Assembly (NCBI GenBank): GCA_011364925.1
Contig: RDOA01000003.1
Location: 64,001 to 128,000 of the forward strand
Reading direction: 5' to 3'
DNA length: 64,000 nt
Source: Promethearchaeota archaeon
GTDB taxonomy: Archaea; Asgardarchaeota; Lokiarchaeia; Sigyniarchaeales; SOKP01
The notes under the pieces are model-generated. The model did no database searches. It was not told the origin of the DNA and was given only the letters and a program-made list of their open reading frames with translations. Of the stretch, positions 4,126 through 21,824 are shown one piece after another; positions within the stretch are counted from its first letter, which is position 1, and every line of letters starts with the position of its first letter. Position numbers and translations under genes: made by a program.

Positions 4126-6039
4126 TTATTTCTGCTTGGCTTTTGTAAGAAATAAATCTGCTATTGCTAACCATTTTTGCTCGGTTTCAGCGTCGAGAGT
4201 ACTCTTTTTTGCTAAATTTTTACCTTCATCAAGGTTTTTAAGAGCTAAATCATACTTTTCAAGCGATTGATAACAAATTCCTAATTTAATATAAGTTTGA
4301 TAAATATACCAATCGTCGCTTCCAAGAACCATCGCTTTGAGAAATTTATTCACCGCTTCTTCGTAATCTTCAAAATACATTAATATTTCACCATATGTAT
4401 CTTGATAAAGTCCATTATTTGGTTCTTTTTTGGTAAGTTTCTGGATTAAGTTTAACGCTCCTTCTCTATCATCTAAGTATTGGAGCCAATAAGCTTTATA
4501 GCAAATAAGATCGTTATCATTTGGGTAGTTAGTGATTAATTCGTTAATGATTTCTAAACCAACTTCAACATTTTGCATTCTTCTAAGAACCGTTGCCTTT
4601 AATATTTTGAGATCTTTTTCATTTTCGGGAAATCTTTCCAGCAGGTCCTCTAGGTAATCTAAGGCTTCTCTATATTGATTAAAGTAGATTAAAATTCTAA
4701 GCTTCTGATAATATAAATTAAGATCACTTGGTTCCAGTTCAATTTTTTTCTCAATTTCCTGTATTTGTGGTTCTAATTGATCACCAAAAGATTTAGTCAT
4801 ATCTGATTGAAAAATAGTTGAAATTTTCTGCCAAATTATACCTTCTAGTTTATCGTAGCTCTCTTTTAATTTTCTTTTAGTCTCAATTTTATAAGCTAAA
4901 TAATTGATATATTCCAATAAGAATTCTTTTAAGGAAGGCTTTAATTCAATATTAAACAAGAACTCACAGCTCTTTTCTGCAATATCGTCTATAATAGATT
5001 CTACATCAGATCTAGGAAAAATTGGAGTGGATTTTGAAAAAAGTTTATTCAAATAGAAAAATTTAGCCAAGCTCTCCTCAATCAATGCGCGCAACATACT
5101 TTCTATTTTTCCTCCTGATTGAAAATAATAGTGTTCACCAGAAGAATGCCTTAATTCAAAAAATCTCAAAGGATATATTCTCCCCTCAGATATTTCAATT
5201 ATATAATAATCGAGCGTCGTTTTTTTAATATCATAGCGTTTTGAGAAATCTTCGGAGGAAATAGAGTTTGGATAGTTATCAGGATGATTAATTGAAAAGA
5301 AGAGTATAATTTTGTGAAACGAGCCCTCGTCTTTCAATAGCGGTTTAACTTTTTCGTAATCTAAAATTAAAATGTAGTTGAGAAATCTGAATTGAATATC
5401 CTTGTCTTTAATTTTATATTTATCAAAAAAATTGAGCGTTTTTTCCGTAATTTCTTCGATCCTTTTACCTTCCTCCTCTAAAATAGTTTGTCTATCCAAG
5501 TCGTAATTTTTAAGCATCCGTGAGTATTCAGATTTACCTAATCGGGTAATTGTATACTTTCCATCCTCTTTTACGATATTACCCTTTTCGATTAATGTAC
5601 TTAAATTCTTAGACAACGAAGATTGATTAATTGAAAGTGGTTCTTCAAGAAATTCAGACCTTCTACAGAAATTATTATTGTAGACCATCCAAAGAATCCA
5701 GTGAGTGTAATTTCTTCCACTCTTTAAAAGCACATCAGGTGGATAATTTAGTATGCGTGCTTTTTTCTTTGCGCTTGAGAGTTCGTTAAATTTCTTTTTT
5801 CCATCTGATGTGATTCTATAATGTCCTCTTGTGACTTTTTCAATAAATCCCTTACGTTGTAGGGGTTCCAAATGCCTAGAAAGCGTTCCTGGTGGAATCT
5901 TGAGCGGATCCTGACAGAAATCTGCCCATTTACACATTTCATTGTTGGTCAACATCCAGAGAATAATATGGTCATAATTAGGTCTATTCCACTTAGAAGG
6001 GGTATAAATCTTGTCTGGAGGGTAATTTACATTTTCCAT
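4126..6039 (-). CDS. Tandem winged-helix + C-terminal TPR protein (putative transcription regulator), paralog 1
   Basis: Two N-terminal repeats (NYPPD...NY.H.ILWM..NN...TLSRHL/SLSKNL..L..KG...Y.IT..GK) with MarR/ArsR-like wHTH pattern; C-terminal TPRs (YQDTYGEILMYFEDYEEA, YIKLGICYQSL). Confidence 0.75.
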   Translation of the reverse strand: MENVNYPPDKIYTPSKWNRPNYDHIILWMLTNNEMCKWADFCQDPLKIPPGTLSRHLEPLQRKGFIEKVTRGHYRITSDGKKKFNELSSAKKKARILNYPPDVLLKSGRNYTHWILWMVYNNNFCRRSEFLEEPLSINQSSLSKNLSTLIEKGNIVKEDGKYTITRLGKSEYSRMLKNYDLDRQTILEEEGKRIEEITEKTLNFFDKYKIKDKDIQFRFLNYILILDYEKVKPLLKDEGSFHKIILFFSINHPDNYPNSISSEDFSKRYDIKKTTLDYYIIEISEGRIYPLRFFELRHSSGEHYYFQSGGKIESMLRALIEESLAKFFYLNKLFSKSTPIFPRSDVESIIDDIAEKSCEFLFNIELKPSLKEFLLEYINYLAYKIETKRKLKESYDKLEGIIWQKISTIFQSDMTKSFGDQLEPQIQEIEKKIELEPSDLNLYYQKLRILIYFNQYREALDYLEDLLERFPENEKDLKILKATVLRRMQNVEVGLEIINELITNYPNDNDLICYKAYWLQYLDDREGALNLIQKLTKKEPNNGLYQDTYGEILMYFEDYEEAVNKFLKAMVLGSDDWYIYQTYIKLGICYQSLEKYDLALKNLDEGKNLAKKSTLDAETEQKWLAIADLFLTKAKQK

Positions 6040-6128
6040 AATTTTAGAAAATTCGATGTTAATTATCTAATTTATAGATCGGGATCTTTCATATTTATAT
6101 CTTTTTTATCAAACCTTCGAAAAAAATC

Positions 6129-6209
6129 GATACTATCGTGAATCTATCGTGAGCGGAATTATAAATGGAACAATATCTGAAGAGCAATTAATCATCATAA
6201 AGATGATTA
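6129..6209 (+). promoter_or_regulatory. Conserved cargo-gene promoter element, copy 1
   Basis: GATACTATCGT/GAATCTATCGT direct repeats, TTATAAAT at 6159, TAATCATC-ATAAA-GATGATTA at 6189-6209. Confidence 0.75.
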
Positions 6210-6253
6210 TTTACCAAAAAAAAGTTGAATTAAAAAAATTATGTAAGGTGAAA

Positions 6254-6907
6254 ATGATAATGAAAAAAAAATCAAAAGTGATTAAAGGTTTTCTTGCAAC
6301 ATCATTTTTCATAACTATCATAGCAATTGTTCCATCGGCGTTAGCTTTTGATCCTAATCGCTTCTACTTCGTAGCAATAGGAGATGATCTAGATATCCCA
6401 AGAACTACTAATTTTATCATAGGGAAGATTGAATTCGGTGAAGATGGTGAACTCCCATCAGCGAGCATACTTTTCTATTCAAAAGTCCGTGATGAATCAA
6501 GAAAAGTCTATACGATGACAGGAATGCTCAACGAGGTATATTTTATTGATAAGAGCTTTTCATTTTTCTGCCCACTCTTTAAAGTCTGGTTTGTTAATGT
6601 GTGGCAAGTCATGGGTCAGGGAAAGTTTAGGACTACTGGTACCAGCCCCCAAGTATACTTTCGAGATTTGTTTACAATAACCATGCCAAATACTGGAGGT
6701 GAAGTTGTATCAGCACAGATTTTAGTGTTATTAAGCCCTACAGCTGAATATAGAGAGGGTGATCCCATAAATGGACCGACAGGACCAGTTAAAATTTGGG
6801 AACAAGGAAAATGGGCCCTTGCTGCGGTTATATGGTATGTTCCTGAAATTGATGATTATATGCCAATTGGTCCGATATCCGATATGACAATATTCATAGG
6901 AAGATGA
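6254..6907 (+). CDS. Exported hypothetical protein (signal peptide); start probably ATG 6254/6260 rather than 6149
   Basis: MKKKSKVIKGFLATSFFITIIAIVPSALA|F signal peptide with AxA site; the 6149 start lies inside the promoter element. Confidence 0.7.
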   Translation: MIMKKKSKVIKGFLATSFFITIIAIVPSALAFDPNRFYFVAIGDDLDIPRTTNFIIGKIEFGEDGELPSASILFYSKVRDESRKVYTMTGMLNEVYFIDKSFSFFCPLFKVWFVNVWQVMGQGKFRTTGTSPQVYFRDLFTITMPNTGGEVVSAQILVLLSPTAEYREGDPINGPTGPVKIWEQGKWALAAVIWYVPEIDDYMPIGPISDMTIFIGR

Positions 6908-7091
6908 ATCCTATAGTGCTAAATCAATCGTAACAGATAATAAATATATTTTAAATTCTTTTTTTTTTTATAATATCCTTTAGACTATTATTAATTTATT
7001 TACTCTTAAAGAGATTTTTGTCAAGAGAAATCTAATCCAATAATATATGAAATTAATAGAAAAGAATGTTAAGATCCATAATCTATTACAC

Positions 7092-7121
7092 TACATTTAA
7101 AACACTAATTAGCTTATAATA
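7092..7121 (+). promoter_or_regulatory. Conserved upstream motif of TPR-longin genes, copy A
   Basis: TACATTTAAAACACTAATTAGCTTATAATA; near-identical copies at 9779 and 11630, degenerate copy at 19005. Confidence 0.55.
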
Positions 7122-7153
7122 TTCATAGGTTTATTATCCAAACAGTTGAGTAT

Positions 7154-9103
7154 ATGTCCCATTCTGAACTAAATCAATTAGCAAGAGCGGAAGAACTTTT
7201 TGATGAAGGTGAGCTTGACAAGGCTTATGGGATCTTAAACGATCGGAGCCAATTTGAGGAGCTAAATCCCCAACAAAAAGAGCATTTCCAGTTTCTTAAG
7301 GGCTTAATTCTATTTTCCCAGTGGAAACATGTAGAGCTTTTTAAGCATGGTGAGGAAATATTTAAAGAAGGTCAAAACCTTAATGATAATCTCCAATCGC
7401 TTGATGGACTATTTTTTATAATCGCTGGATTAGGTCAAGCTAACAGATTTAAAGAAGCCATTCAAAAATTTGAAACTGCTGAAGTGCTATTAGAGCTTAG
7501 TTCTAATGAATCCAGAACCATTTTTACTCAAAGAAAAGCTCGGATGAGACTTCTAAAAGGATGGATTAATCTGGAGTCAAATAATCTAGATGTAGCAGAA
7601 AAGTGCTTAGATTGGGTCTTAAATTCCCAAAATGATCTGGGTAATACATTTGAAATTGTTTGGGCTACTTTATTGAAGGCACGACTTAAGTTTCAAGGAA
7701 AATTGATGTATAATCTCTGTGGAGAATACGCTAAGAAAGCTTTTTCAATGGCAAAACAAATTAAATTTAACCACTTCTGGATTGCTCTTTGTCAAGTGAT
7801 TTTAGGGGCGCTATATTCTAGTCTAGGCGAGATAGATATCAGTTTGAAATATTTCATGAAAAGTTTGGCGATATTTAGAAAAATCAAAAGCAATTATTGG
7901 ATTGCATTTGTGCTTAACGGCGTAGGCTGTATCTATTATGAACTTGGCAATTTCAAACTAAGTCTTAAATACTACGAAGAATGTTTATCAATTCATGAAA
8001 AATTAACTGGTTATCTGGTTCTACCTCTTTCTAATTTAGTTGAAGTGGCGCTTGAAATAGGTGATAATGAACTTGCTCGGCAATACTTCAATCGACTAAA
8101 AAATTTTTACAATCCAAAAGAAGATAGGCTAAGTGAATTAGCATACTTATCTACTAAGGCATTAATGCTAAAAAAGAGTCCTCGAATTCGCGATAAAGCA
8201 AAAGCTGAAGAGATATTTAGAAAAATCATAAACATTGATGCTTTATGGAGTGAATTTGTGATTCACGCAACAATTCATCTGTGTGACCTGCTTCTTTCAG
8301 AATATCATTTTACTAATAGTAATGAAGTACTTGAAGAGCTTAATCACTACATTGCTAAATTATTAACTATAGCGGAAAAAACACAATCATATACTTACTC
8401 TTGTAATACTTTCATATTACAAGCAAAACTAGCTTTAATAAAGTTTGATATAAAATCAGCTCGACGACTTTTTACTCAAGCACAGAAAATAGCGGAATCC
8501 AATGGGATGAACCGATTAGCAATGAAAATTTCACAGGAACACGATGAGTTAATCAAGCAAATAAAGGTATGGGAAATGTTAAAAGAATCAGAAGCGTCAT
8601 TATCTGAACGCTTTGAACTCGCTGGTTTAAGTAAGCAGATAGAAAGTATGGTGAAAAGGAGAATCATTGAAGTTCCAGAGCTTTCAGATGAAGAACCTGT
8701 GCTACTTTTAATAATTTCTGAGGGAGGCACACCATTTTTCTCACAATCTTTTAATGTGGAAAAATCATTCGAATCACACCTTTTTGGCGGCTTTTTGAGC
8801 ACTATAGATTACTTTATTAACGAGGTGTTTTCCGAAGGATTAGATCGCGCCGTATTCGGCGAACACACTCTTCTTATGAAGTCCGTTCCGCCTTTTTTTA
8901 TTGCCTATATATTTAAAGGTCAATCTTACTATGCTCTTCAAAAAATGAGTAGTTTCATTAGTAACCTCCAAAAAAATACTGATATTTGGAATAAATTACT
9001 TAGACATTTTCGAGCAAATCAGACTATTCAATTGAAAGATTTTCCTTTAATCGATTCCTTAATTACAAATACTTTTCTCGCAGGACATACATCTTCGAAA
9101 TAA
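7154..9103 (+). CDS. TPR protein with C-terminal longin-like domain, paralog 1
   Basis: TPR repeats; conserved LKKSPRIRDKAKAEEIF; C-terminal EEPVLLLIISEGGTPFFS...LFGGFLSTIDYF...LDRAVFGEHTLLMK...FIAYIFKG longin-like pattern. Confidence 0.75.
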   Translation: MSHSELNQLARAEELFDEGELDKAYGILNDRSQFEELNPQQKEHFQFLKGLILFSQWKHVELFKHGEEIFKEGQNLNDNLQSLDGLFFIIAGLGQANRFKEAIQKFETAEVLLELSSNESRTIFTQRKARMRLLKGWINLESNNLDVAEKCLDWVLNSQNDLGNTFEIVWATLLKARLKFQGKLMYNLCGEYAKKAFSMAKQIKFNHFWIALCQVILGALYSSLGEIDISLKYFMKSLAIFRKIKSNYWIAFVLNGVGCIYYELGNFKLSLKYYEECLSIHEKLTGYLVLPLSNLVEVALEIGDNELARQYFNRLKNFYNPKEDRLSELAYLSTKALMLKKSPRIRDKAKAEEIFRKIINIDALWSEFVIHATIHLCDLLLSEYHFTNSNEVLEELNHYIAKLLTIAEKTQSYTYSCNTFILQAKLALIKFDIKSARRLFTQAQKIAESNGMNRLAMKISQEHDELIKQIKVWEMLKESEASLSERFELAGLSKQIESMVKRRIIEVPELSDEEPVLLLIISEGGTPFFSQSFNVEKSFESHLFGGFLSTIDYFINEVFSEGLDRAVFGEHTLLMKSVPPFFIAYIFKGQSYYALQKMSSFISNLQKNTDIWNKLLRHFRANQTIQLKDFPLIDSLITNTFLAGHTSSK

Positions 9104-9166
9104 TTTTTAACTATGTTTTATTGCGTTCGAATTATTCCCAATTTTCAAGCTGTATCATAGAGAATT

Positions 9167-9246
9167 GAAACTATCGTGAAACTATCGCGAGCTCAATTAT
9201 AAATGCAACAATACCTCAAAATCTATTTAGTCATCGTAAAGATGAT
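9167..9246 (+). promoter_or_regulatory. Conserved cargo-gene promoter element, copy 2
   Basis: GAAACTATCGT/GAAACTATCGC, TTATAAAT at 9197, GTCATC-GTAAA-GATGAT at 9230-9246. Confidence 0.75.
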
Positions 9247-9282
9247 AAAATTGAGATTTCAATAAAAAAGCGGATTCAGAAA

Positions 9283-9678
9283 ATGACTGAAATTAAAAAA
9301 TTTACAAAAATCGTGCTTATAGTGGATGCTATTCTTTGGTTCATGTTTACGATATTCCTTATATTTATTTTTGATATGACTATGAATCCTGAGGGTTGGA
9401 CAAACCCCTATCTCCCAAAATTATTTGGGGGTGTTATTTTTGTATCTGCTATTTTCGCAATTTTAATGCTTCGTAAAAAAGAATGGGAAGAAATTAAACT
9501 GTTATTTGCGTATTTTATAGGGTTACTAATATCGACATTATTCTTTGAAGCTACTGTATTTGCTATTGTAGGATTTGCTTTTGGAACTCTAACGATTATG
9601 GTACATTCATTTAATATAACAGTAGAGGCTGTACTTCTAGCGCTTGCAATTATCAGCTGGATAAAACAAAGAGTATAA
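9283..9678 (+). CDS. Small 4-TM membrane protein of unknown function
   Basis: Four hydrophobic segments in 131 aa. Confidence 0.7.
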   Translation: MTEIKKFTKIVLIVDAILWFMFTIFLIFIFDMTMNPEGWTNPYLPKLFGGVIFVSAIFAILMLRKKEWEEIKLLFAYFIGLLISTLFFEATVFAIVGFAFGTLTIMVHSFNITVEAVLLALAIISWIKQRV

Positions 9679-9778
9679 AGCAAAAATCAAAATTAAATTT
9701 AAAAAATTTTTTTCTTTTTTTGACATTGAATATCCATTCTAATAGGTATTAGAATTTTAATAGCAGATTGGTGAACAT

Positions 9779-9808
9779 TATATTTAAAACCCAATTTAGC
9801 TTATATTA
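9779..9808 (+). promoter_or_regulatory. Conserved upstream motif of TPR-longin genes, copy B
   Basis: TATATTTAAAACCCAATTTAGCTTATATTA. Confidence 0.55.
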
Positions 9809-9854
9809 GTAATTATATCCAAAAATGTCTTAAATTAAAATGATTTTTGAGTAG

Positions 9855-11549
9855 ATGTTTTTTCTTAATCCTGAGATTAAAGGTTTGAATTCAGTTAGGC
9901 AACTTATGGAAGATGGGAAAATGCAGAAAGCCTTCCAAATTGTTTTAGAATTAGAACAAGGAGACGATCTTTCTCCCAAAGAATTACTCTCGTGTAAGCT
10001 CGTAAAGGCTAATCTATTACGTGTAATAGGAAATTATCCAGACGCAATTGAAATTGCTAAGGAAATTTTTCGAGAATTTCAAAAACAAGGTGATTTAGTA
10101 TCATCGTTAGACGCTTTACTTATTCAAGCATATACCTATATGATAACGGTTAATTTAACTCAAAGTGAACATCTTATTCCACAGATAGAAAATTTATTCA
10201 AAGCAATTAAAGAACCATTATCAATAGATCTCAAAGAAAGAGAATCTTTTTTCTTAAGAATAAAAGCTGCTATTCATTCTCTCAAAGGCGAATTTCAACG
10301 ATCCTTAGAACTTAACAAAAAAGCTTATGATCTAGCTAAAGAGACTGGAAACACAGTATTGATTGTTGCGAGTCTTAATAATACTGCTAATGATTATTTC
10401 CATATGAAAGAATATGACATGGCAATAATGTATGGTAAACAAGCTATTAAGAATGATAGTCTAAATTTGGCAGTTGCGTACGCTACCTTAATTGAAACTT
10501 ATGTCAGCAAGGGAGACATTAAAGAAGCGATAATTTATCTCGATCGTTTGCATGAATTTTCAGAGAATTACGATTCTAAATGGAATAGAACTTTATATTC
10601 CCTAAATAAAGCTTTGATATTAAAATCAAGTCTCCGAGCAAGAGATCGTATTAAAGCAGAAGATCTATTTAAAAAAATAGCTTTGGACAGTACTGTAGCT
10701 GGTACAATGCGGATTGATGCGATTATATATTTATGCGATTTATACTTAACTGAACTTCGGATAACTCACGACCCAGAAATAATAAACGAGATTCACCCAT
10801 ATATTCAAGAGTTATTAAGTATTGCTAAAAAACAAGATTCACATTTATATTTAGCCGAAACTCTACTTTTGCAAGCAAAACTTTCACTATTGACTTTAGA
10901 TATAAAAGAAGCTAAACGATTTTTAACTCGAGGCCAAAAAGTAGCAGAATCACATGGTATTAAACAACTAGCAATGAGAATCTCAAACGAACACGATTAT
11001 TTACTCGGTCAAGAAAAACTCTGGAATAATTTCAAGCAATCAAAAGTTCCTTTCTCTGAACGCTTGGAACTCGCTGGTTTGAATCAACAGATGGATTATA
11101 TGACAAAAAGGCAAATATTCACTATTCCACAACAACCAGACGAGGAACCGGTGCTCCTTTTATTGCTTTCAGAGGGGGGAGTACCCTTTTTCTCCCACAC
11201 TTTTGTAGAAGATCGATCCTTCAAATCGCATCTTTTTGGTGGATTTCTAACCACTATTGATTACTTTATTCGAGAAATGTTTTCTGAAGGATTAGATCGA
11301 GCAATCTTTGGAGATTACACACTTGTTATGAAGTCTCTAACACCTTTTTTTGTTTCCTATATATTTAAAGGTAATTCTTATTACGCTCTCCAAAAAACAG
11401 ATTATTTTATTGAATGTATTAAGAAAGATGAGCATATATGGGCAAAACTACTAAAATATCTTCAAGCAAACCAGTCAATTCAATTAAAAGACATCCCTCA
11501 ACTTGATTCTTTGATAATAGAAATCTTTATCCCAGAAAAATCTGTATGA
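9855..11549 (+). CDS. TPR protein with C-terminal longin-like domain, paralog 2
   Basis: TPRs; LKSSLRARDRIKAEDLF; EEPVLLLLLSEGGVPFFS...LFGGFLTTIDYF. Confidence 0.75.
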   Translation: MFFLNPEIKGLNSVRQLMEDGKMQKAFQIVLELEQGDDLSPKELLSCKLVKANLLRVIGNYPDAIEIAKEIFREFQKQGDLVSSLDALLIQAYTYMITVNLTQSEHLIPQIENLFKAIKEPLSIDLKERESFFLRIKAAIHSLKGEFQRSLELNKKAYDLAKETGNTVLIVASLNNTANDYFHMKEYDMAIMYGKQAIKNDSLNLAVAYATLIETYVSKGDIKEAIIYLDRLHEFSENYDSKWNRTLYSLNKALILKSSLRARDRIKAEDLFKKIALDSTVAGTMRIDAIIYLCDLYLTELRITHDPEIINEIHPYIQELLSIAKKQDSHLYLAETLLLQAKLSLLTLDIKEAKRFLTRGQKVAESHGIKQLAMRISNEHDYLLGQEKLWNNFKQSKVPFSERLELAGLNQQMDYMTKRQIFTIPQQPDEEPVLLLLLSEGGVPFFSHTFVEDRSFKSHLFGGFLTTIDYFIREMFSEGLDRAIFGDYTLVMKSLTPFFVSYIFKGNSYYALQKTDYFIECIKKDEHIWAKLLKYLQANQSIQLKDIPQLDSLIIEIFIPEKSV

Positions 11550-11629
11550 TCTCAATTTGATAGAATCTCAAAAAATGTTTTAATAGGGATATGTTCTTTA
11601 AAAAATTGAATATAATCATAAGTTCACAT

Positions 11630-11659
11630 TATATTTAAAACACAAATTAGCTTATATTA
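11630..11659 (+). promoter_or_regulatory. Conserved upstream motif of TPR-longin genes, copy C
   Basis: TATATTTAAAACACAAATTAGCTTATATTA. Confidence 0.55.
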
Positions 11660-11704
11660 GTAATTATAACCAAAAAGTTTTGGTTTAGCGAGATTTTTGA
11701 TTAG

Positions 11705-13387
11705 ATGATTCATTTTGATGATAAAGAACTGATTGAAATCAGTCAAATTATAGAAGAGGGCAAACTGAAGGAAGCTTACCAGGCTATTTTAGAATTGGAG
11801 CAAAAAGATGATCTATCTAATAAAGAAAAAATCTCATGTAAACTCATTAAAGCTAATCTTTTCCGAGTTATGGGACAATATTTGGAATCTATTGAATATG
11901 CTGAAACAGTTTTTCAAGAATCTCAAAAAGGAGGAGATATTCTTTCATCTTTCGATGCTTTAACCATTCAAGCGCATTGCTATACATATATGGTTGACAT
12001 AATTAAAAGTGAAGAACTTTACACTCAAGCACAAGAGATATTTAAAATAATAAAAGAAAGATTTTCCATAGATCTAAGGGAGAGAGAATCTTTCTTGGTA
12101 AGGATAAAAGCTGGAATTAACTTTTTTAAGGGAGATATTAAATCTTATATAAAATTAAATGAGGAGGCTTATGACCTCGCAAAAAATACAAAGAGTGAAA
12201 ACCTAATTGCTTCTAGCCTTAACAACCTTGCTCAAGGTTACTTTCATTTAAAAGAATATGACAAAGCCATACAGTATGCTAAAGAAGCCGTTAAGATTGG
12301 AAAATCTTTTACTTTAGCTTATGCATTAGGAACATTAATTGATATATATCTCGGGATGGGCGATATTAACGAAGCAAAAGCTAATCTTGGAATCTTTCAT
12401 GATCATGCCAAAGAACTTGGTACTGAAAGATACAAAACTCTCTATAATTACTCTAAAGCATCAGTTTTAAAAGCTAGTCTAAGAGCCAGAGACCGTATCA
12501 AATCTGAAGATATCTTCCTGAGTATTGCATTGGATCATGCAAGACCTAGCGAACAAAGGATTGATGCGATTCTTAGTTTATGTGATTTATACATAACTGA
12601 ACTTCGGATAACTAATGACCCCGAAATAATAAACGAGATTCACCCATATATTCAAGAATTGTTAAATATTGCTAAAAAACAACATTCACGTTTATATTTA
12701 GCCGAAACATTACTTTTGCAAGCAAAACTTTCACTACTAACTTTAGATATAAAAGAAACTAAACGATTTTTAAATCAAGGTCAAAAAATAGCAGAATTGT
12801 ACGGTATTAAACAACTGGCAATGAGAATCTCAAATGAACATGATAATTTACTCAGTCAAGAAAAAATTTGGGAGAATTTCAAGCAATCAAAAGTACCCTT
12901 CTCCGAACGTTTGGAACTCGCCGGTTTGAATCAACAGATGGATTATATGACGAGAAGGCGAATATCTGTTATCCCACAACAACCCGGCGAGGAACCAGTG
13001 CTGCTTTTATTGCTTTCAGAGGGAGGAGTCCCTTTTTTCTCATACACATTTGGAGAAGATCGATCCTTTAAATCGCATCTTTTTGGTGGATTTTTAACCA
13101 CTATCGATTACTTTATTCGAGAAATGTTTTCTGAAGGATTAGATCGCGCAATCTTTGGAGATTACACTCTTGTCATGAAGTCTGTGACGCCATTTTTCGT
13201 TTCCTATATATTTAAAGGCAATTCTTATTACGCTCTCCAGAAAGCGGATAATTTTATTGATACTATTAAAAACAACGAGCAACTTTGGAAAAAGCTGCTT
13301 AAATATTTTCAAGCGAACCAAGCAATTCAATTAAATGACATCCCTCAACTTGATTCTCTAATAAATGAGGTCTTTATAACAAAATAA
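11705..13387 (+). CDS. TPR protein with C-terminal longin-like domain, paralog 3 (tandem duplicate of paralog 2)
   Basis: Same architecture; C-terminal half nearly identical to 9855..11549. Confidence 0.75.
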   Translation: MIHFDDKELIEISQIIEEGKLKEAYQAILELEQKDDLSNKEKISCKLIKANLFRVMGQYLESIEYAETVFQESQKGGDILSSFDALTIQAHCYTYMVDIIKSEELYTQAQEIFKIIKERFSIDLRERESFLVRIKAGINFFKGDIKSYIKLNEEAYDLAKNTKSENLIASSLNNLAQGYFHLKEYDKAIQYAKEAVKIGKSFTLAYALGTLIDIYLGMGDINEAKANLGIFHDHAKELGTERYKTLYNYSKASVLKASLRARDRIKSEDIFLSIALDHARPSEQRIDAILSLCDLYITELRITNDPEIINEIHPYIQELLNIAKKQHSRLYLAETLLLQAKLSLLTLDIKETKRFLNQGQKIAELYGIKQLAMRISNEHDNLLSQEKIWENFKQSKVPFSERLELAGLNQQMDYMTRRRISVIPQQPGEEPVLLLLLSEGGVPFFSYTFGEDRSFKSHLFGGFLTTIDYFIREMFSEGLDRAIFGDYTLVMKSVTPFFVSYIFKGNSYYALQKADNFIDTIKNNEQLWKKLLKYFQANQAIQLNDIPQLDSLINEVFITK

Positions 13388-13427
13388 CTTGTTTGATCTC
13401 TATTTAGGTAATTGATTAAAAATAATT

Positions 13428-13509
13428 GAAACTATCGCGAAACTATCGATAGCTCAATTATAAATGAGATTTTACCTCCAGATTTAATTAGTCATCGCAA
13501 AGATGATTA
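13428..13509 (+). promoter_or_regulatory. Conserved cargo-gene promoter element, copy 3
   Basis: GAAACTATCGC/GAAACTATCGA, TTATAAAT at 13458, TAGTCATC-GCAAA-GATGATTA at 13489-13509. Confidence 0.75.
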
Positions 13510-13532
13510 CTTTAAATCTAAACACAAGAGAG

Positions 13533-14255
13533 TTGATAAAAATTAATAGATCAAAAATAGTTAAAAATATAACATTACTTGCGACTATCGGAATTTTACT
13601 TCTGGTGTTTTCCACATCAGTGCAAGGTTGGGGTGGATATAGGAGTCGAATCAATATTAGACCTATAGAGGATTGGAAAGGAGAAGATGTTGTAGGCTGG
13701 GCAGATCCAGAATCTGGGTTAGTTATCCATCCTCAAGCTGTCGAATGGGTCCCCGCTGATCCAGAGAGTCCTAACTTTCCATTTACTCTCTTAGATTGGG
13801 AGCGAAAACCCATATGGGAGTGCGAATATTGGGGAACGATTCTGGAACGAGAATTAGATGATCAAAACACATTAATCTCTATTTATATTTATGTAAAGGA
13901 AGTTCCCTTCATGATCTTCACTCTTACTGGAGCAGATTATATCTATTATCCCCCACTCTATTATGGTGTGATGCAATACTATTTCCAATGCAAGATGCAA
14001 TTCAATACAGAGTCCCTTTATAATATATTTGAAGCTGATGGAAAAATTCCTGCTCTCAATGAAATATTTGGTGCATCCTACGGTTTTTGGCCTTATCCCG
14101 AAGAACCAGTTCCACTTGTGACATACATGCACATTTTAGGAGTGGGTGAAATAACTGAAGGAGGAGATGGAACTGTATATCTCCATCAACTTGGGATTTT
14201 TAACACAGAAATAGGAGATTATGATTATCCGTACGAAACGGTAGTCGTTAAGTAG
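13533..14255 (+). CDS. Exported hypothetical protein; start probably TTG 13533
   Basis: MIKINRSKIV... leader matches MIKINRTKLV of 17116; hydrophobic signal ending SVQG; the 13503 ATG lies inside the hairpin. Confidence 0.7.
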   Translation: MIKINRSKIVKNITLLATIGILLLVFSTSVQGWGGYRSRINIRPIEDWKGEDVVGWADPESGLVIHPQAVEWVPADPESPNFPFTLLDWERKPIWECEYWGTILERELDDQNTLISIYIYVKEVPFMIFTLTGADYIYYPPLYYGVMQYYFQCKMQFNTESLYNIFEADGKIPALNEIFGASYGFWPYPEEPVPLVTYMHILGVGEITEGGDGTVYLHQLGIFNTEIGDYDYPYETVVVK

Positions 14256-14294
14256 AGAGCTTTAGGGCGAGGTTTTATATATTTAAATTACATA

Positions 14295-14364
14295 ATAGAA
14301 CATGGAGGAATTGGATTAGAAATTAAATTTCTACCAATAAACCTCCGTTCTATTTTTTTTTTTT
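14295..14364 (+). terminator. Long imperfect hairpin + T-tract (terminator or small RNA)
   Basis: Nested pairs ATAGAAC/GTTCTAT, GGAGG/CCTCC, TTGG/CCAA, TAGAAAT/ATTTCTA, followed by a long T run. Confidence 0.55.
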
Positions 14365-14457
14365 AATTCCTTAGAAAAGGTAAAATTAATTCAATTGAAT
14401 AAATATCGAATTCAATTAACTAAAGTTTTATATTAGGCTATATCTAATTTTACATTA

Positions 14458-15012
14458 ATGACTAATTCTTCTGAATTTGGCTTTAAAATATCTATAATCG
14501 GTGATGGCGGGGTTGGTAAGACCTCCCTAATCAAAAAGTATACAATGGGAACTTTTGAGAAGGATTATGTTAAGACGATAGGTGCTCAATTCTCTAGATA
14601 TGATCAAGAAATCGATGGAGATCTAATTAATTTAATATTTTGGGATATCGCAGGTCAGGATGATTTTAAATTCCTGCATCCTTTATTTTATAAAGAGAGC
14701 CGAGCTGCTATTATTGTATATAGTCTTGAAGAAAATGATTTAGGTAATGATAGCTACAAGCATATAATCAATTGGTATAACGAATTAAAGAAATATTGTG
14801 GAATTATTCCTGTGGTTATTATTGCCAATAAAATTGATTTAATTAATCAATCTGAGTTGGATGAGTTTGCAATTCAAAATTTAGTCAAAGAAAATAACTT
14901 TCTTGGATATTTTATTACTTCTGCAAAAACAGGCGAGGGAGTAATAGATGCTTTTAACGCAATTATCAAAAACTTATACTATAAGTATAAAGATTTATCT
15001 AGCTCTCAGTAG
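14458..15012 (+). CDS. Rab-like small GTPase (Ras superfamily), paralog 1
   Basis: G1 GDGGVGKT, G2 YVKTIG, G3 WDIAGQ, G4 NKID, G5 TSAK. Confidence 0.95.
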   Translation: MTNSSEFGFKISIIGDGGVGKTSLIKKYTMGTFEKDYVKTIGAQFSRYDQEIDGDLINLIFWDIAGQDDFKFLHPLFYKESRAAIIVYSLEENDLGNDSYKHIINWYNELKKYCGIIPVVIIANKIDLINQSELDEFAIQNLVKENNFLGYFITSAKTGEGVIDAFNAIIKNLYYKYKDLSSSQ

Positions 15013-16927
15013 CGTGATTTAAAGGTATCAAAGATCTATGTTCCTCTATCTCTGCGAGAAAAAGGTCTACAATTGCTAACCATTTATTTTTTGATTCCAA
15101 ATCGCTTATAATTTTGCTTGTTAATTCTTTTCCTCTCTTAAGATTTTGTACAGCTAATTCAAAATTTTCGAGAGCTGTATAACAAATTCCAATTTTGATA
15201 TAAGTCTGATAGATAAACCAATCGTTAGAATCAATTTCTATGGCTTTTTGGAATTCATTTATCGCTTCTTCGTATTCTTTAAAGTTTATTAAAATTTCTC
15301 CGAATGTATCGTGGAAAATTCCATTTTCTGGTTCTTTTTTTACGAGTTCCCGAAGAAGTTCCAATGCTTCTTGTTCTTTATCTAAATAAGATAACCAATA
15401 CGCTTTATAATTATGAAGCAGAGTATTGTTTGGATATTTTTCGATTAAATCTTCAATAATTTTTAAGCCTTCTTCTAAGTTTTTATCTTTTTTAAGAGTA
15501 TAAGCTTTTTTTATCGTAATATCTATCTCTTTTTTAGGAAATATCTCGAACATGTTTTCTAGTACCATTAAAACATCGTTATACTGATTAAAATAGAGTA
15601 AAATTCGTACTTTTGAATTGTATAAATCGTAATTCTTTGGACTTAATTCAATTTCATTTTCTATTTCTTTAATTTTCTCTTTGTATTGAGATTCAAATGT
15701 TTCAGAATTCTGCGATTGCATTATCTCCGTCATGTTCTGCCAAATAATTCCTTCTAGTTTATCGTATGTCTCTACTAATTCTTTTTTTATCTCAATTTTA
15801 TATGCTAGATATTCCATATACTCTGGTAAAAATTCTCTTAATGGTTCCTCGAAATCCTTATGAAATAAAAATTGACATACTTCTTCGAGAATATCGTCAA
15901 TCATCGAATTCATACTTCCTAATTCAGCAAATTTTTCTAAATATTTGTTTGCTGCTATATGTTCTTCCGTAATAGCTCGAAGAATTTTCTCTAATTTTTC
16001 GTCAAAATGGAAATAGTACCGTTTCTTGGGGGAAATATCTAAAATAAAAAACTTTAAGTCGTAGAATTCGCTTTCTACAATCTCATGTACCCAATAATCA
16101 AGCATTCTCTTCTCTATTTTGTAAAATCTCGAAAAATCCTCAAAAGATAAGTAATCAGGATAAAAATCGGGATGATTTATTGAAATAAAGAGCAAAATTT
16201 TGTAAAAATCCTCCTCATCTTTTAAGATTGAGTTAACTTTTAAATAATCTAATTTTAAAACCTTATTGAGAAATCTAAATTTTACACGATCGTCAATAAT
16301 ATTGAACTTATCGAAGAAATGCGACGCTTTTACAGTGATTTCGTCTATTCGCTTTCTTTCTTCTTCTAAAATTGTTTGTCTGTCTAAATTATAATTTTGT
16401 AGAATCCTCGAATATTCTATTTTCCCTAATTGAGTAATGATATATCTTTTGTTTTCTCTGACGATAAATCCCTTTTGAATTAATAAACTTAGAGTTTTTG
16501 ATAAAGAGGACTGATTTATAGAGAAAGGTTTTTCAAGAAAATCAGACCTTTTACAAAACCCATTATTGTACACCATCCAAATAATCCAGTGGGCATAATT
16601 TCGCCCTCTCTTCAAAATGACATCAGGGGGGAAACTTAGTTTTCGTTCCCTGGTTCTTTCTCTTGATAATTCTTGAAATTTTTGTTCCCCTTCTGGAGTT
16701 ATCTGGTATTGTCCTCTAGAAAGTTTCTCTACGAAGCCTTTGAGGATTAATTTTGTTAAATGACGGGAAATTGTAGATATGGGAATTTCAAGCGGTTTTT
16801 GTTCGAAATAGGACCATTCACAACTTTCATTATTCTTTAACATCCAAAGAATAATATGGTCATAGTTTGGCCTTTTCAGTTTAGAGGAATTAAGAATCTC
16901 ATCGGAAGGATAATTTATTTTGCTCAT
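14999..16927 (-). CDS. Tandem winged-helix + TPR protein, paralog 2
   Basis: Full-length paralog of 4126..6039 (RPNYDHIILWML, SINQSSLSK, YQTYIKIGICY); 3' end overlaps the GTPase 3' end by 14 bp. Confidence 0.75.
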   Translation of the reverse strand: MSKINYPSDEILNSSKLKRPNYDHIILWMLKNNESCEWSYFEQKPLEIPISTISRHLTKLILKGFVEKLSRGQYQITPEGEQKFQELSRERTRERKLSFPPDVILKRGRNYAHWIIWMVYNNGFCKRSDFLEKPFSINQSSLSKTLSLLIQKGFIVRENKRYIITQLGKIEYSRILQNYNLDRQTILEEERKRIDEITVKASHFFDKFNIIDDRVKFRFLNKVLKLDYLKVNSILKDEEDFYKILLFISINHPDFYPDYLSFEDFSRFYKIEKRMLDYWVHEIVESEFYDLKFFILDISPKKRYYFHFDEKLEKILRAITEEHIAANKYLEKFAELGSMNSMIDDILEEVCQFLFHKDFEEPLREFLPEYMEYLAYKIEIKKELVETYDKLEGIIWQNMTEIMQSQNSETFESQYKEKIKEIENEIELSPKNYDLYNSKVRILLYFNQYNDVLMVLENMFEIFPKKEIDITIKKAYTLKKDKNLEEGLKIIEDLIEKYPNNTLLHNYKAYWLSYLDKEQEALELLRELVKKEPENGIFHDTFGEILINFKEYEEAINEFQKAIEIDSNDWFIYQTYIKIGICYTALENFELAVQNLKRGKELTSKIISDLESKNKWLAIVDLFLAEIEEHRSLIPLNHATES

Positions 16928-17006
16928 GATAGTTGAAAACTTAGTCTTATGATTAATTATGAATATTTATATTTATATCTATTTTTCGAAACTTCCACTT
17001 TTTTTC

Positions 17007-17086
17007 GGAATTTCCGTGGAATTATCGGAAGCTTAATTATATATGCAAATTTATCTCAAGATTTAATTAATCATCGTAAAGATGAT
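17007..17086 (+). promoter_or_regulatory. Conserved cargo-gene promoter element, copy 4 (diverged direct repeats)
   Basis: GGAATTTCCGT/GGAATTATCGG, TTATATAT at 17037, ATCATC-GTAAA-GATGAT at 17070-17086. Confidence 0.7.
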
Positions 17087-17115
17087 AAAATCTAATATAA
17101 CTGAAAAAAAAAGAG

Positions 17116-17664
17116 TTGATTAAAATTAATAGAACAAAATTAGTACCAAAATTAATACTAGTACTCTTAGTATTTACCACTATAACTGGCTTTGCATTTA
17201 CTTTTGTTGTAGCTAAAGGAGATCAAAGGGCAAGTAGATTATCTTTTACAGCTACAGAAACTATGATATGGCCAGATGGTTGGGTTCCTATAGGTGATCC
17301 ATGGGGTGATGGTAAGTTCATACATCAGATGTACTATAAAAAAGCAATTCTTGATGGCACAATTGAGGAAATAGGGGACTTTTCAGGGTATGATGAATTA
17401 TATTTGCATGTTAAAATGGACCCAAATACCTTTGAGGTTATAAGCATTGGTAAAGTAACGATGTATATCTTTTGCGATAACGGACTAGAAGGAACTTTTT
17501 ATGGATCTGTTATTGCGAAGGGTACAGCTGGCTTTGGTCCTTTCGACGGTAAATATACGTTGCAAGGAGCTGGAGGATTTGAAGGAATGAAGCTTTTTGG
17601 TATAGTCTGGCTTGAAAGTGGTCTAGTAAACGGACTTTCTGGTACAATCTTAATCCCAAATTAA
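17116..17664 (+). CDS. Exported all-beta protein (possibly allene-oxide-cyclase/dirigent-like barrel)
   Basis: Signal peptide ending VVA; beta-rich with GKYTLQGAGGFEGM motif; fold call tentative. Confidence 0.6.
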   Translation: MIKINRTKLVPKLILVLLVFTTITGFAFTFVVAKGDQRASRLSFTATETMIWPDGWVPIGDPWGDGKFIHQMYYKKAILDGTIEEIGDFSGYDELYLHVKMDPNTFEVISIGKVTMYIFCDNGLEGTFYGSVIAKGTAGFGPFDGKYTLQGAGGFEGMKLFGIVWLESGLVNGLSGTILIPN

Positions 17665-17688
17665 AATCAAGAATAAAGGTGAATTCAA

Positions 17689-18777
17689 ATGCAAAAATCA
17701 ATGCAAAGAAAACTATTGTTGATGTTTCTCCTTGGTTCAATATTTTTCGTAATTCCTATTGCGAGCTCTAATGGAACTACATTCACTCCAAAGAAGGTTG
17801 CAGAACAATCTCTGTCCGGTGCTACAACTCACGTTTATTTGGATGGAGATTACGCATTCATGGGAGTTGGAACATCCGGTCTGGCCATCGTTGATATTTC
17901 CCACCCGAAAAATCCAGGAACCCCGGTCTATAGAGACACCTCCGGCAGGGCGTATAACCTTTGGGTAGAGGGAGGCTACGCCTATGTGGCAGATTTTGAT
18001 AAGGGTTTAGCTGTCATTGATGTTTCCGACCCAACAAACCCAGGACCTGCTACGCACGTACTAACAACCCAAGCTTGTGGTGATGTATGTGTTAGTGGAA
18101 ATTACGCTTATGTGGACGGTGGTGGCTTAGCGGTTATCGACATTTCTGACCCAGTGCATCCGAACCTGGTCGTAACCAAACCTTTAACTGGAATTCCGTA
18201 TGGTCTTTGCGTGAGTGGAGAATACGCATACATAGCAACTGCTGATACTGGTTTGGCGATCGTCAATATTTCCGATCCGACCAATCCAGGAACTCCCATT
18301 TACGAAGATACGACCGGAACTGCGTGGGATGTGTGTGTAAGTGGCGGTTACGCCTATGTAACAACCGGTAGTACCGGTTTAGCGATTATCGATGTTTCCG
18401 ACCCGACAAATCCGGGAACGCCTGTTTATAGAGACACGACAGGAACTGCATATTTTATTTTTCTAAACGGAAGTTACGCCTATATAGCGGCTGATACTGG
18501 AGGCGTGGCGATCATTGATGTATCCGACCCGACAAATCCGGGAACGCCGACCTATATAGATGTGGAAGGTCAAGCAATTGATGTGTATGTCAGGGGAGAC
18601 TATGCTTATGTGGCGGATGAACATTACGGCTTGAAAGTCTACGATCTTTTCTATACTACTCCAGAACCTGGTATTCCATTCGATAATTTCTACTTATTAT
18701 TTATTGGGTTTAGCGTACTATGCTTAGTATTCATCGTTTCAAAAAAACGCAAAATTACTAGTGAATCTCAAAAATAA
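17689..18777 (+). CDS. LVIVD-repeat beta-propeller surface protein with Loki-CTERM-like anchor
   Basis: Signal peptide; ~6 repeats of YAYVA..GLAIIDVSDPTNPG; C-terminal PGIPF-TM-KKRK. Confidence 0.85.
   Translation: MQKSMQRKLLLMFLLGSIFFVIPIASSNGTTFTPKKVAEQSLSGATTHVYLDGDYAFMGVGTSGLAIVDISHPKNPGTPVYRDTSGRAYNLWVEGGYAYVADFDKGLAVIDVSDPTNPGPATHVLTTQACGDVCVSGNYAYVDGGGLAVIDISDPVHPNLVVTKPLTGIPYGLCVSGEYAYIATADTGLAIVNISDPTNPGTPIYEDTTGTAWDVCVSGGYAYVTTGSTGLAIIDVSDPTNPGTPVYRDTTGTAYFIFLNGSYAYIAADTGGVAIIDVSDPTNPGTPTYIDVEGQAIDVYVRGDYAYVADEHYGLKVYDLFYTTPEPGIPFDNFYLLFIGFSVLCLVFIVSKKRKITSESQK
17870..18640 (+). repeat. Intragenic ~126-bp (42-aa) tandem repeats
   Basis: gatgt(t/a)tccgacccgacaaatccgggaacgcc at 18391 and 18517 (126 bp apart), with weaker copies upstream. 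Confidence 0.7.
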
Positions 18778-18799: not shown

Positions 18800-18832
18800 T
18801 TAACACCTAATTGGTGTTAAACAAATTTTTTT
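18800..18832 (+). terminator. Hairpin + T-tract terminator after the LVIVD gene
   Basis: TTAACACC-TAATT-GGTGTTAA perfect 8-bp stem followed by T7. Confidence 0.6.
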
Positions 18833-21169: not shown

Positions 21170-21269
21170 CATTATCTTTTTCTGTTAGTTTAATTTGCCA
21201 AAATTTTATATTAAACTAAAACCAATCTAACATTAAATACTTATAATTTGATTTAGATATAGAAATCTA

Positions 21270-21824
21270 ATGAAACCCTTTGAGGAATTTCGATTTAAAA
21301 TTGTAATCTTAGGAGATGGTGCAGTAGGTAAAACATCCCTAATTCAGAAATTCACTAAAGGGGTATTTGAAAAAGAATATGTAAAAACAATCGGAGCTCA
21401 GTTTTCAAAATACAACAAAAAGATTGATGGAGATATAATTAGATTAATATTTTGGGATATAGCAGGTCAGATAGATTTCAATTTTCTAAATCACTTATTT
21501 TATAAAGAAGCTAAAGCAGCAATTATAGTATTTAGTCTCGAAACTAATGATTTGGGTCAAAAAAGTTTCATCCATATAACAAACTGGTATAAGGAATTAG
21601 AAAAGTATTGCGGTACTATTCCTGTTGTTACATTTGCGAATAAAGTTGATTTGGTGGATAAAAATAGATTAAATGAGTCTAAAATCCAAAAATTAGCCAA
21701 GGAAAATAACTTCCTTGGATATTATATCACCTCTGCAAAAACAGGAGAGGGCGTAATAGAAGCTTTTAATGCTATTATTGATAAATTATATTTTAAATAT
21801 AAAAAATTATCATCAATTGATTGA
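21270..21824 (+). CDS. Rab-like small GTPase, paralog 2
   Basis: GDGAVGKT, YVKTIG, WDIAGQ, NKVD, TSAK; same length as 14458..15012. Confidence 0.95.
   Translation: MKPFEEFRFKIVILGDGAVGKTSLIQKFTKGVFEKEYVKTIGAQFSKYNKKIDGDIIRLIFWDIAGQIDFNFLNHLFYKEAKAAIIVFSLETNDLGQKSFIHITNWYKELEKYCGTIPVVTFANKVDLVDKNRLNESKIQKLAKENNFLGYYITSAKTGEGVIEAFNAIIDKLYFKYKKLSSID

Follow-up and report, generated by a model that had tools for sequence, protein, structure and literature searches.

Archaeal activators such as Ptr2 of Methanocaldococcus and members of the TrmB and Lrp families bind sites directly upstream of the transcription factor B (TFB) recognition element (BRE) and TATA box, and archaeal repressors typically act at the transcription start site (TSS). 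Activators of the SARP/AfsR type recognize tandem direct repeats that are one helical turn apart and lie against the core promoter, and 5′-terminal stem-loops of the ompA/ermC type stabilize bacterial mRNAs. Archaeal regulation has been reviewed (cf. PMC12993045; section 6 for repressors). The literature searched contained no characterized pair of a specific transcription factor and its operator from an Asgard archaeon. Here we describe a promoter cassette that occurs four times in a 64,000-nucleotide (nt) stretch of DNA (the window) from Promethearchaeota archaeon (assembly GCA_011364925.1, contig RDOA01000003.1, positions 64,001–128,000 of the forward strand). It precedes genes for exported or membrane proteins and recurs beside genes for putative regulators that combine tandem winged helix-turn-helix (wHTH) domains with tetratricopeptide repeats (TPRs). 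Our analysis of sequence and predicted structure makes it probable, though far from certain, that the cassette is a regulated archaeal promoter and leader whose upstream repeats serve as the operator of these regulators.

The system resembles the archaeal activators in that the candidate operator abuts the BRE/TATA element and the regulator is a winged-helix protein, encoded divergently, which suggests autoregulation. It differs from them in having two wHTH domains in one chain, a middle region of about 230 amino acids (aa), and a TPR domain, as well as a tandem direct repeat with an 11-base-pair (bp) period, a third repeat-like site, and a conserved 5′ hairpin in the same module. The closest working analogy is with the SARP/AfsR activators of Streptomyces, which join a winged helix to C-terminal TPRs (PMC11301090); in the cassette, a pair of repeats with an 11-bp period stops 8 bp short of the TATA box. 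This is an analogy rather than membership: SARPs are bacterial, sigma-70-dependent proteins with an OmpR-type DNA-binding domain and a BTAD domain (plus an NB-ARC ATPase in AfsR), and Pfam detected no SARP/AfsR-type Trans_reg_C, BTAD, or NB-ARC domain in the regulators.

Other resemblances are partial. Foldseek returned only generic relatives of the regulator N-terminus (SarS, PadR, MarR, and PhiH1-repressor-like proteins). Of these best matches, SarS (PDB 1p4x), of the SarS/SarA family, shares the two wHTH domains in one chain; the similarity to all these proteins is weak (template modeling [TM] score about 0.3, E about 1e-3) and without sequence similarity, and they lack a TPR domain and come from unrelated organisms. 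A PDB sequence search with the N-terminus gave no match, and no named archaeal transcription factor family matched beyond generic wHTH models. RRNPP receptors likewise fuse a DNA-binding domain to TPRs and are found beside genes for exported proteins; peptide sensing of this kind was considered but is not supported, as the tandem wHTH domains are not of the XRE type and the exported proteins, at 130–260 aa, are not short propeptides. The sole Pfam match to ComR_TPR is in a neighboring TPR–longin protein, not in a regulator. Like the ompA/ermC stem-loops, the cassette places a short hairpin a few nt from the predicted 5′ end; unlike them, its arms are conserved in sequence far beyond the needs of pairing. 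No archaeal precedent for a 5′-terminal stabilizing stem-loop was found in the literature searched.

Structure and Distribution of the Cassette

The host (genome of 3.9 Mb, 33% GC) is a Loki-type Asgard archaeon of the Promethearchaeia. Its genome encodes TATA-binding protein (TBP), and the close relatives of the regulators all occur in metagenome-assembled genomes named Promethearchaeota or Promethearchaeia. These observations bear out the archaeal promoter context assumed in an earlier note on this DNA and led us to reject a bacterial reading of the same elements, as a class II activator site beside a −10 box.

Each cassette consists of a pair of abutting 11-bp direct repeats, then an 8-bp spacer, the sequence TTATAWAT, about 25 nt of semi-conserved DNA, and the palindrome ATCATC-N5-GATGAT, promoter and leader together forming a module of about 85 bp. 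All four are on the plus strand: cassette 1 at 6129–6207 (repeats, 6129–6139 and 6140–6150; BRE-like element, 6151–6158; TATA box, 6159–6166; stem-loop, 6191–6207), cassette 2 at 9167–9246 (repeats, 9167–9188; TATA box, 9197–9204; stem-loop, 9230–9246), cassette 3 at 13428–13507 (repeats, 13428–13449; TATA box, 13458–13465; stem-loop, 13491–13507), and cassette 4 at 17007–17086 (repeats, 17007–17028; TATA box, 17037–17044; stem-loop, 17070–17086). The outer pair of the stem is G-U in cassettes 2 and 3. Repeats of cassettes 1–3 are of the CTATCG type; those of cassette 4 have diverged to GGAATTTCCGT/GGAATTATCGG. The earlier note had described the four cassettes correctly in coordinates, repeats, spacer, TATA box, and the divergence of the fourth copy. 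Its palindrome, TCATC-N5-GATGA, is also present at the spacing it gave (counted from the initial T of the TATA box, 33 nt in cassette 1 and 34 nt in cassettes 2–4), but the stem is 6 bp long (ATCATC/GATGAT) rather than 5 bp.

In 58 unique copies gathered from loci of relatives, TTATAWAT is invariant or nearly so and is preceded immediately by a BRE-like ..CAA, the form of a BRE/TATA core promoter. In every copy, 8 bp separate the end of repeat 2 from the TATA box, which agrees with the earlier placement of the repeats directly upstream of the core promoter, where archaeal activators bind. Information content is low in flanks, loop, and leader but high in the two repeats, the TATA box and its BRE-like octamer, and both arms of the stem. 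The cassette always points toward an open reading frame (ORF), which starts 18–72 nt past the stem-loop in all copies.

The pattern TTATAWAT-N20–30-TCATC-N5-GATGA has four matches in the window versus none in 100 shuffled sequences, and a single further match, on contig C33, in the whole genome; CTATCG-N5-CTATCG occurs three times genome-wide, each time within a cassette. The C33 match, which has no repeats, a palindrome at C49:234, and a repeat-like match on C50, inside a GTPase coding region, lack the other parts of the cassette and were dismissed as chance. Genome scans with a covariance model, for which 17 copies served as input, revealed a fifth, diverged copy on another contig of the same genome (C24:29552–29640, plus strand), with repeats GGAACTCCCAC/GAATGTTCCAT, TATA box CTATAAAT, and stem GGTTATC/GATAATC. 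It precedes genes for a 213-aa signal-peptide protein and a membrane protein like that behind cassette 2 (family F0, below), with no regulator alongside.

By the same model, 24 of 42 host-genus genomes carry the cassette, at one to five copies each, clustered on regulator-bearing contigs, as do all three genomes of a sister genus of the same family; it found none in seven genomes of other genera of the family or in 19 genomes of three other families. A metagenome scan anchored on repeat 2, BRE, and TATA box alone, and thus blind to the hairpin, added 34 true cassettes. The scan of the genome and its relatives that the earlier note had proposed thereby yielded four copies and one diverged copy at home and conservation across related species, and the local regulon suggested there stands, in that the cassette marks a local set of exported/membrane genes that is kept from species to species. 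No Rfam family reached its gathering score anywhere in the window.

Putative Regulators and the Divergent Intergenic Region

Regulator 1 (637 aa; 4126–6039, minus strand) and its paralog regulator 2 (642 aa; 14999–16927, minus strand) are 55% identical and share two N-terminal wHTH domains, the middle region, and C-terminal TPRs. In regulator 1, Pfam places the wHTH domains at aa 26–89 and 126–173 and the TPRs at 441–611; the wHTH matches are to MarR, PadR, HTH_45, and HVO_A0261_N, and the middle region matched no Pfam family. An AlphaFold2 (AF2) model of aa 1–185, made from a 54-sequence alignment, contains two wHTH domains (mean predicted local distance difference test [pLDDT] score 88) with recognition helices at about aa 50–62 and 139–151. 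The family is expanded in the host genus, with matches in 22 of 24 sampled genomes and up to 13 per genome; 11 genomes of a sister family gave none.

The same cassette recurs beside orthologs of the regulators in relatives, and in 38 of the 58 copies the divergent regulator start codon lies 84–95 bp from cassette position 1 (85–86 bp in 33). Two wHTH domains fit two repeats one helical turn apart, which supports the link between regulator and repeats. In the arrangement that we favor, the repeats would be bound by the divergently encoded tandem-wHTH/TPR proteins, with the TPR and middle domains as possible receivers of a signal. Because the repeats lie directly against the BRE, recruitment of TFB/TBP, and hence activation, is the most likely mode of action. 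Two considerations weigh on the other side: the TATA box is near consensus, so an activator may be unneeded for basal transcription, and, with 8 bp between it and the TATA box, a bound protein could block TFB instead.

A third repeat-like site (site 0; consensus RGAACTTCCAY) lies 8 bp 5′ of repeat 1 in cassette 1 (6110–6120, plus strand; CAAACCTTCGA) and cassette 4 (16988–16998, plus strand; GAAACTTCCAC). Though apparently optional to the proposed operator, it has a fixed position in nearly all regulator-adjacent cassettes and occurs before many of the non-adjacent cassettes too; it is constant between regulator clades, which repeats 1 and 2 are not. The promoter region of regulator 1 (6068–6102, minus strand) contains two TATA-like elements, CTATAAAT and ATATAAATA, both of which keep their position and sequence in 30 or more orthologous intergenic regions, and is tied by repeat family D20 to 16966–16992. 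The regulators probably control their own divergent promoter as well, through site 0.

Further paralogs are encoded elsewhere in the genome (C56:12926–14806, C23:12628–15084, C61:2708–5584, and C43:38135–38569); they are 44–58% identical, and some reach 850–990 aa. The C56 paralog is divergent to a small GTPase gene, and the C43 paralog has repeats of the form AAACYTYCATGAAAG upstream. At its 3′ end, the gene for regulator 2 overlaps convergently by 14 nt (14999–15012) with that for a Rab-like GTPase on the plus strand (GTPase 1, below).

The Palindrome near the Predicted Start Site

The archaeal TATA box is found about 28 nt upstream of the TSS (PMC8553660), and a small excess of long ORFs in the host genome has an ATG 29 nt past the start of a TATA box (18 versus about 8). 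On account of this usual spacing, the TSS of the cassettes is predicted to lie 1–3 nt before the stem, about 29–31 nt downstream of the T that opens the TATA box (about 6188–6191, plus strand, in cassette 1). Transcripts would then carry an AUCAUC-N5-GAUGAU hairpin 1–3 nt from their 5′ end. All four leaders fold into such a hairpin (z −2.3 to −3.2), that of cassette 1 at −10 kcal/mol (z = −2.85). Among 59 aligned copies, 94% of stem cells are paired, including 14 G-U cells, and eight cells show double changes; paired cells, double-change cells, and covariation score each exceeded all 500 shuffles. The outer pair is A-U in 44 copies, G-U in seven, and G-C in one; the fifth pair is U-A in 44 copies, C-G in six (double changes from U-A), and U-G in two. 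In the diverged C24 copy, the stem GGUUAUC/GAUAAUC carries a compensatory C-G to U-A change.

The palindrome could instead be a DNA operator over the TSS, at which a common dimeric repressor or the second wHTH domain (wHTH2) blocks recruitment of RNA polymerase, the repeats being a second, clade-specific site. Its position at the predicted TSS is one at which archaeal repressors typically act, its arms are almost invariant across regulator clades as loop and flanks vary, and the recognition helix of wHTH2, NQSSLSKNL, is as nearly invariant across clades as the palindrome itself. The changes that do occur tell against such an operator. The G-U cells pair in sense-strand RNA only and break the DNA palindrome, and therefore favor an RNA hairpin. 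Of the 34 metagenome cassettes, collected without regard to the hairpin, 22 have a perfect stem, five have one G-U pair, none has a single mismatch, one has the hairpin shifted by 7 nt, and one has a broken stem, so that all five single-change variants are G-U. The displaced copy also speaks against a DNA operator, as does a loop that ranges from 3 to 6 nt. Two further metagenome cassettes with normal repeats and TATA box (L126:1972–2035 and L148:4466–4529) have exchanged the palindrome for an unrelated, stable 10-bp leader hairpin, UUGCGUUUUA/UAAAAUGCAA. Finally, hairpin and leader are also found ahead of F0 genes that lie behind a gene of family F3 (the family found after cassette 1) and an oligo-T run, where there are no repeats and no clear TATA box.

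Some observations weigh on the other side: the conservation of the arms noted above, far in excess of what a purely structural hairpin needs, the origin of the compensatory changes in one or two lineages only, and the absence of the canonical hairpin from five of the 34 metagenome cassettes, among them the two with a replacement. Taken together, the pairing pattern suggests that the palindrome probably acts as an RNA hairpin near the mRNA 5′ end, most likely in mRNA stability or translation control; a DNA operator at this position is a serious candidate that we nevertheless think rather unlikely.

The F3–F0 spacers themselves have a regular layout of a T9–T13 run, a compact hairpin (CATCA-ATT-TGATG), and then the usual F0 leader. 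They were seen at loci L041, L047, L054, L058–L061, L063, L070, and L092.

Repeat Variants and Regulator Clades

In the 38 regulator-adjacent copies the repeat type tracks the regulator clade, and variants are fixed within clades. Clade 1, which includes regulator 1, combines the helix IP(P/T)GTLSRHL(E/D)xLKRKG in its first wHTH domain (wHTH1) with the repeat GRAACTATC(G/A); clade 2, which includes regulator 2, combines the helix IPISTISRHLTKLILKG with the repeats GGAATTTYC and GGAATTRYCG; and two smaller clades have further repeat variants. The non-adjacent cassettes 2 and 3 bear the repeat type of regulator 1, encoded at the same locus. Regulators of clades 1 and 2 probably read different repeat variants.

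From the diverged repeats of cassette 4, the earlier note had inferred co-evolved specificity of regulator and operator. Repeat type does follow clade, a pattern that linked descent can also produce. When overall regulator divergence was controlled in a partial Mantel test, the correlation between repeat and helix was low (partial r 0.14, p about 0.07), and that between the non-repeat flank and the helix was as large. The match between repeat and clade is compatible with co-evolved specificity; linked descent of the gene and its neighboring promoter would explain it equally well, because the repeat–helix correlation is weak and no larger than that of the flank. That the test does not separate the two counts against our reading of the repeats, as does the fact that both repeats vary between clades while the wHTH2 helix hardly does, with which a model of one domain per repeat fits poorly.

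These results also leave some room for a different factor that binds the repeats, in which case the adjacency of the wHTH–TPR genes would reflect a conserved neighborhood with a shared divergent intergenic region. Recognition of the repeats by the regulators is predicted from sequence, the covariation of repeat and helix is not significant beyond phylogeny, and 20 of the 58 unique cassettes, which count against the regulators as the binding proteins, have no adjoining regulator gene. Such a neighborhood does not readily account for a spacing that is near-constant (mostly 85–86 bp) in 38 copies from two genera, for the agreement of two wHTH domains with two repeats, or for repeat variants that are fixed clade by clade; non-adjacent cassettes, moreover, share clusters with regulators. 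We therefore judge a different binding factor to be quite unlikely.

Genes behind the Cassettes

The genes that follow the cassettes, identified from their translations and by family clustering, are all on the plus strand. Cassette 1 precedes a gene for an exported protein of family F3 (217 aa, with a signal-peptide-like N-terminus; 6254–6907), for which neither Pfam nor the Atlas gave an annotation, with a T11 run 3′ of it (6959–6969). Cassette 2 precedes the gene for a multipass membrane protein of family F0 (131 aa; 9283–9678), the commonest first gene behind cassettes, whose leader is conserved in 25 loci and which has T7 runs at 9707–9713 and 9715–9721. Cassette 3 is followed by the gene for a signal-peptide protein of family F4 (about 240 aa; 13533–14255), starting at TTG 13533 or in-frame ATG 13503, and by a hairpin and T12 run (14353–14364). 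Behind cassette 4 is a two-gene unit (17116–18777) encoding a 182-aa signal-peptide protein of family F5 (17116–17664) and an LVIVD beta-propeller protein, which is exported too (17689–18777); the 24-nt gap between the genes has a GGTGA Shine–Dalgarno (SD) sequence, and a hairpin and T7 run (18826–18832) follow the second.

As the earlier note had held, the four first genes are unrelated exported or membrane genes, three with signal-peptide-like N-termini and one multipass. They belong to four families whose mature parts gave hhalign probabilities below 10%, and profile comparison found no remote homology among F0, F3, F4, and F5 beyond the signal peptide; F4, F5, and a further family, F10, share the signal peptide MIKINR(S/T)KLVPK alone. 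In the ESM Atlas, two of the exported (cargo) proteins matched unnamed clusters only, with scores below 0.9.

In 33 of 36 cases, the 120 nt behind the first gene contain a run of at least six T residues, usually T9–T16, against a background of 21.5%. The cassette units are short: they consist of one gene or two, encoding signal-peptide or membrane proteins, and close with oligo-T. Each cassette would drive one such unit, with the long oligo-T as terminator. The recurring gene order behind cassettes (cargo, a TPR protein of about 650 aa, and a 184-aa Ras-family GTPase) had first suggested long operons; we rejected these on account of the oligo-T runs and of the separate promoter-like elements of the TPR and GTPase genes described below. 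The DNA that separates the F3 stop codon from the oligo-T run behind it holds, at 6918–6958, a 3′ element, GCTAAATCAATCGTAACAGATAA..AATATATT, that is conserved in other species too.

The hairpin might also act in translation, a reading that is compatible with the regulated promoter and leader that we favor. Its 3′ arm, G(A/G)UGAU, would mimic an SD sequence and contain an AUG, its 5′ arm, AUCA(U/C)C, would mimic the 16S rRNA 3′ end, and the arm would either start a short upstream ORF (uORF) or switch pairing with the true SD sequence of the gene behind it, GAGKUGAU. The 16S rRNA 3′ end (contig C86) is GGATCACCTCCT, the variant arms ATCACC/GGTGAT of relatives are an exact anti-SD/SD match, and a second SD-like motif, GAG(T/G)TGAT, lies just 5′ of the F0, F4, and F5 starts. 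The AUG of the arm opens a short ORF of seven codons in cassette 2 and one of 13 codons, overlapping the main start, in cassette 4; in cassettes 1 and 3 it shares the frame of the main ORF. This inconsistency of frame, two copies in and two out, speaks against a translational role, as do the lack of conservation of the uORF peptides, the absence of a start codon at SD distance after the arm, and the rarity of SD use in the host genome (about 3% of long ORFs). We consider such a role improbable.

Cassettes 3 and 4 are 75% identical in DNA over the leader and the start of the signal-peptide coding region (MIKINR(S/T)K; 13513–13577 and 17096–17160; repeat family D12). It seems that a single duplicated module, made up of promoter, leader, and signal peptide, came to stand before unrelated mature domains. 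The locus is indeed built of duplicated modules, but the cassette as a functionless leftover of recent duplication or gene conversion is so improbable that it can be dismissed, since dozens of species, and metagenome contigs as well, retain the cassette at orthologous positions, and it is conserved block by block over many species against diverged flanking intergenic DNA.

Neighboring TPR–Longin and Rab-Like GTPase Genes

Three plus-strand genes of unit 1 (7154–9103, 9855–11549, and 11705–13387) encode proteins with Pfam TPR matches and a C-terminal longin-like domain. Each is preceded by a promoter-like element (7088–7138, 9775–9825, and 11626–11676, plus strand; repeat family D6) of the form ACATTATATTTAAAAC..TTAGCTTATATTAG, also written ACATTATATTTAAAAC..TTAGCTTATATTAGTAA.TATA, which is distinct from the cassette and conserved in relatives. 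Unit 2 has a similar gene (19094–21169, plus strand). Pfam found no match in the C-termini of these proteins. The last 150 aa adopt a longin/roadblock-like fold in an AF2 model (beta-beta-alpha-beta-beta-beta-alpha(-alpha); pLDDT 74, predicted TM score [pTM] 0.70), encoded at 8621–9100, 11073–11531, 12920–13381, and 20693–21148 in the four genes. Foldseek matched this domain to AP sigma subunits, zeta-COP, LAMTOR, Mon1–Ccz1, and Fuzzy (probability about 1, TM score 0.42–0.56).

Rab-like GTPase 1 (14458–15012, plus strand; Pfam Ras, E = 9e-40) and its unit 2 counterpart, GTPase 2 (21270–21824, plus strand), which is 70% identical to it, share another element (14411–14466 and 21189–21244, plus strand; repeat family D15). 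Its sequence, CTAAA(G/A)TTTTATATTA..ATCTAAT.TTACATTAA, comprises a BRE/TATA element and a conserved downstream block, and it precedes many GTPase paralogs in relatives. The ATG of GTPase 1 lies 32 nt downstream of the initial T of its TATA box, and the mRNA is therefore probably leaderless.

Both the TPR and the GTPase elements are conserved 5′ of homologous genes in other species. Judged by these sequences, the regulon defined by the cassette is one of exported/membrane genes only, the TPR–longin and GTPase genes carrying promoter-like elements of their own, and one neighborhood holds three promoter classes, for exported cargo, TPR–longin proteins, and Rab-like GTPases. A structural survey of Asgard GTPases notes that, in a cultured Loki strain, GTPase genes do not as a rule share operons with roadblock or longin genes or with their putative regulators, and it suggests transcription-factor-specific regulation (PMC10933270). 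In the window, GTPase and TPR–longin genes are tightly clustered beside a regulator and a candidate operator for exported proteins.

Implications for Asgard Gene Regulation

The element is confined to two genera, and the functional steps proposed for it are inferred. Within that range, it supplies a compact cis-element (about 85 bp) whose sub-parts are clear, a genome in which two paralogous candidate regulators go with different operator variants, and natural variants by the dozen in relatives. This candidate pair of regulator and DNA site could be studied in vitro, using synthetic DNA and recombinant protein, with no need to culture the organism. The three separated promoter classes provide an entry to Asgard regulatory logic around eukaryote-like trafficking proteins.

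More speculatively, the locus may be a self-contained Asgard circuit, in which the wHTH–TPR regulators would be transcriptional outputs of the Rab-like GTPase/TPR–longin modules (for example, through TPR contact), each reading its own repeat variant for private surface or secreted proteins, with the shared, SD/anti-SD-armed 5′ hairpin as a post-transcriptional gate. We hold this to be a long shot; if true, it would represent a prokaryotic pathway from small GTPase to transcription with a diversifying operator code.

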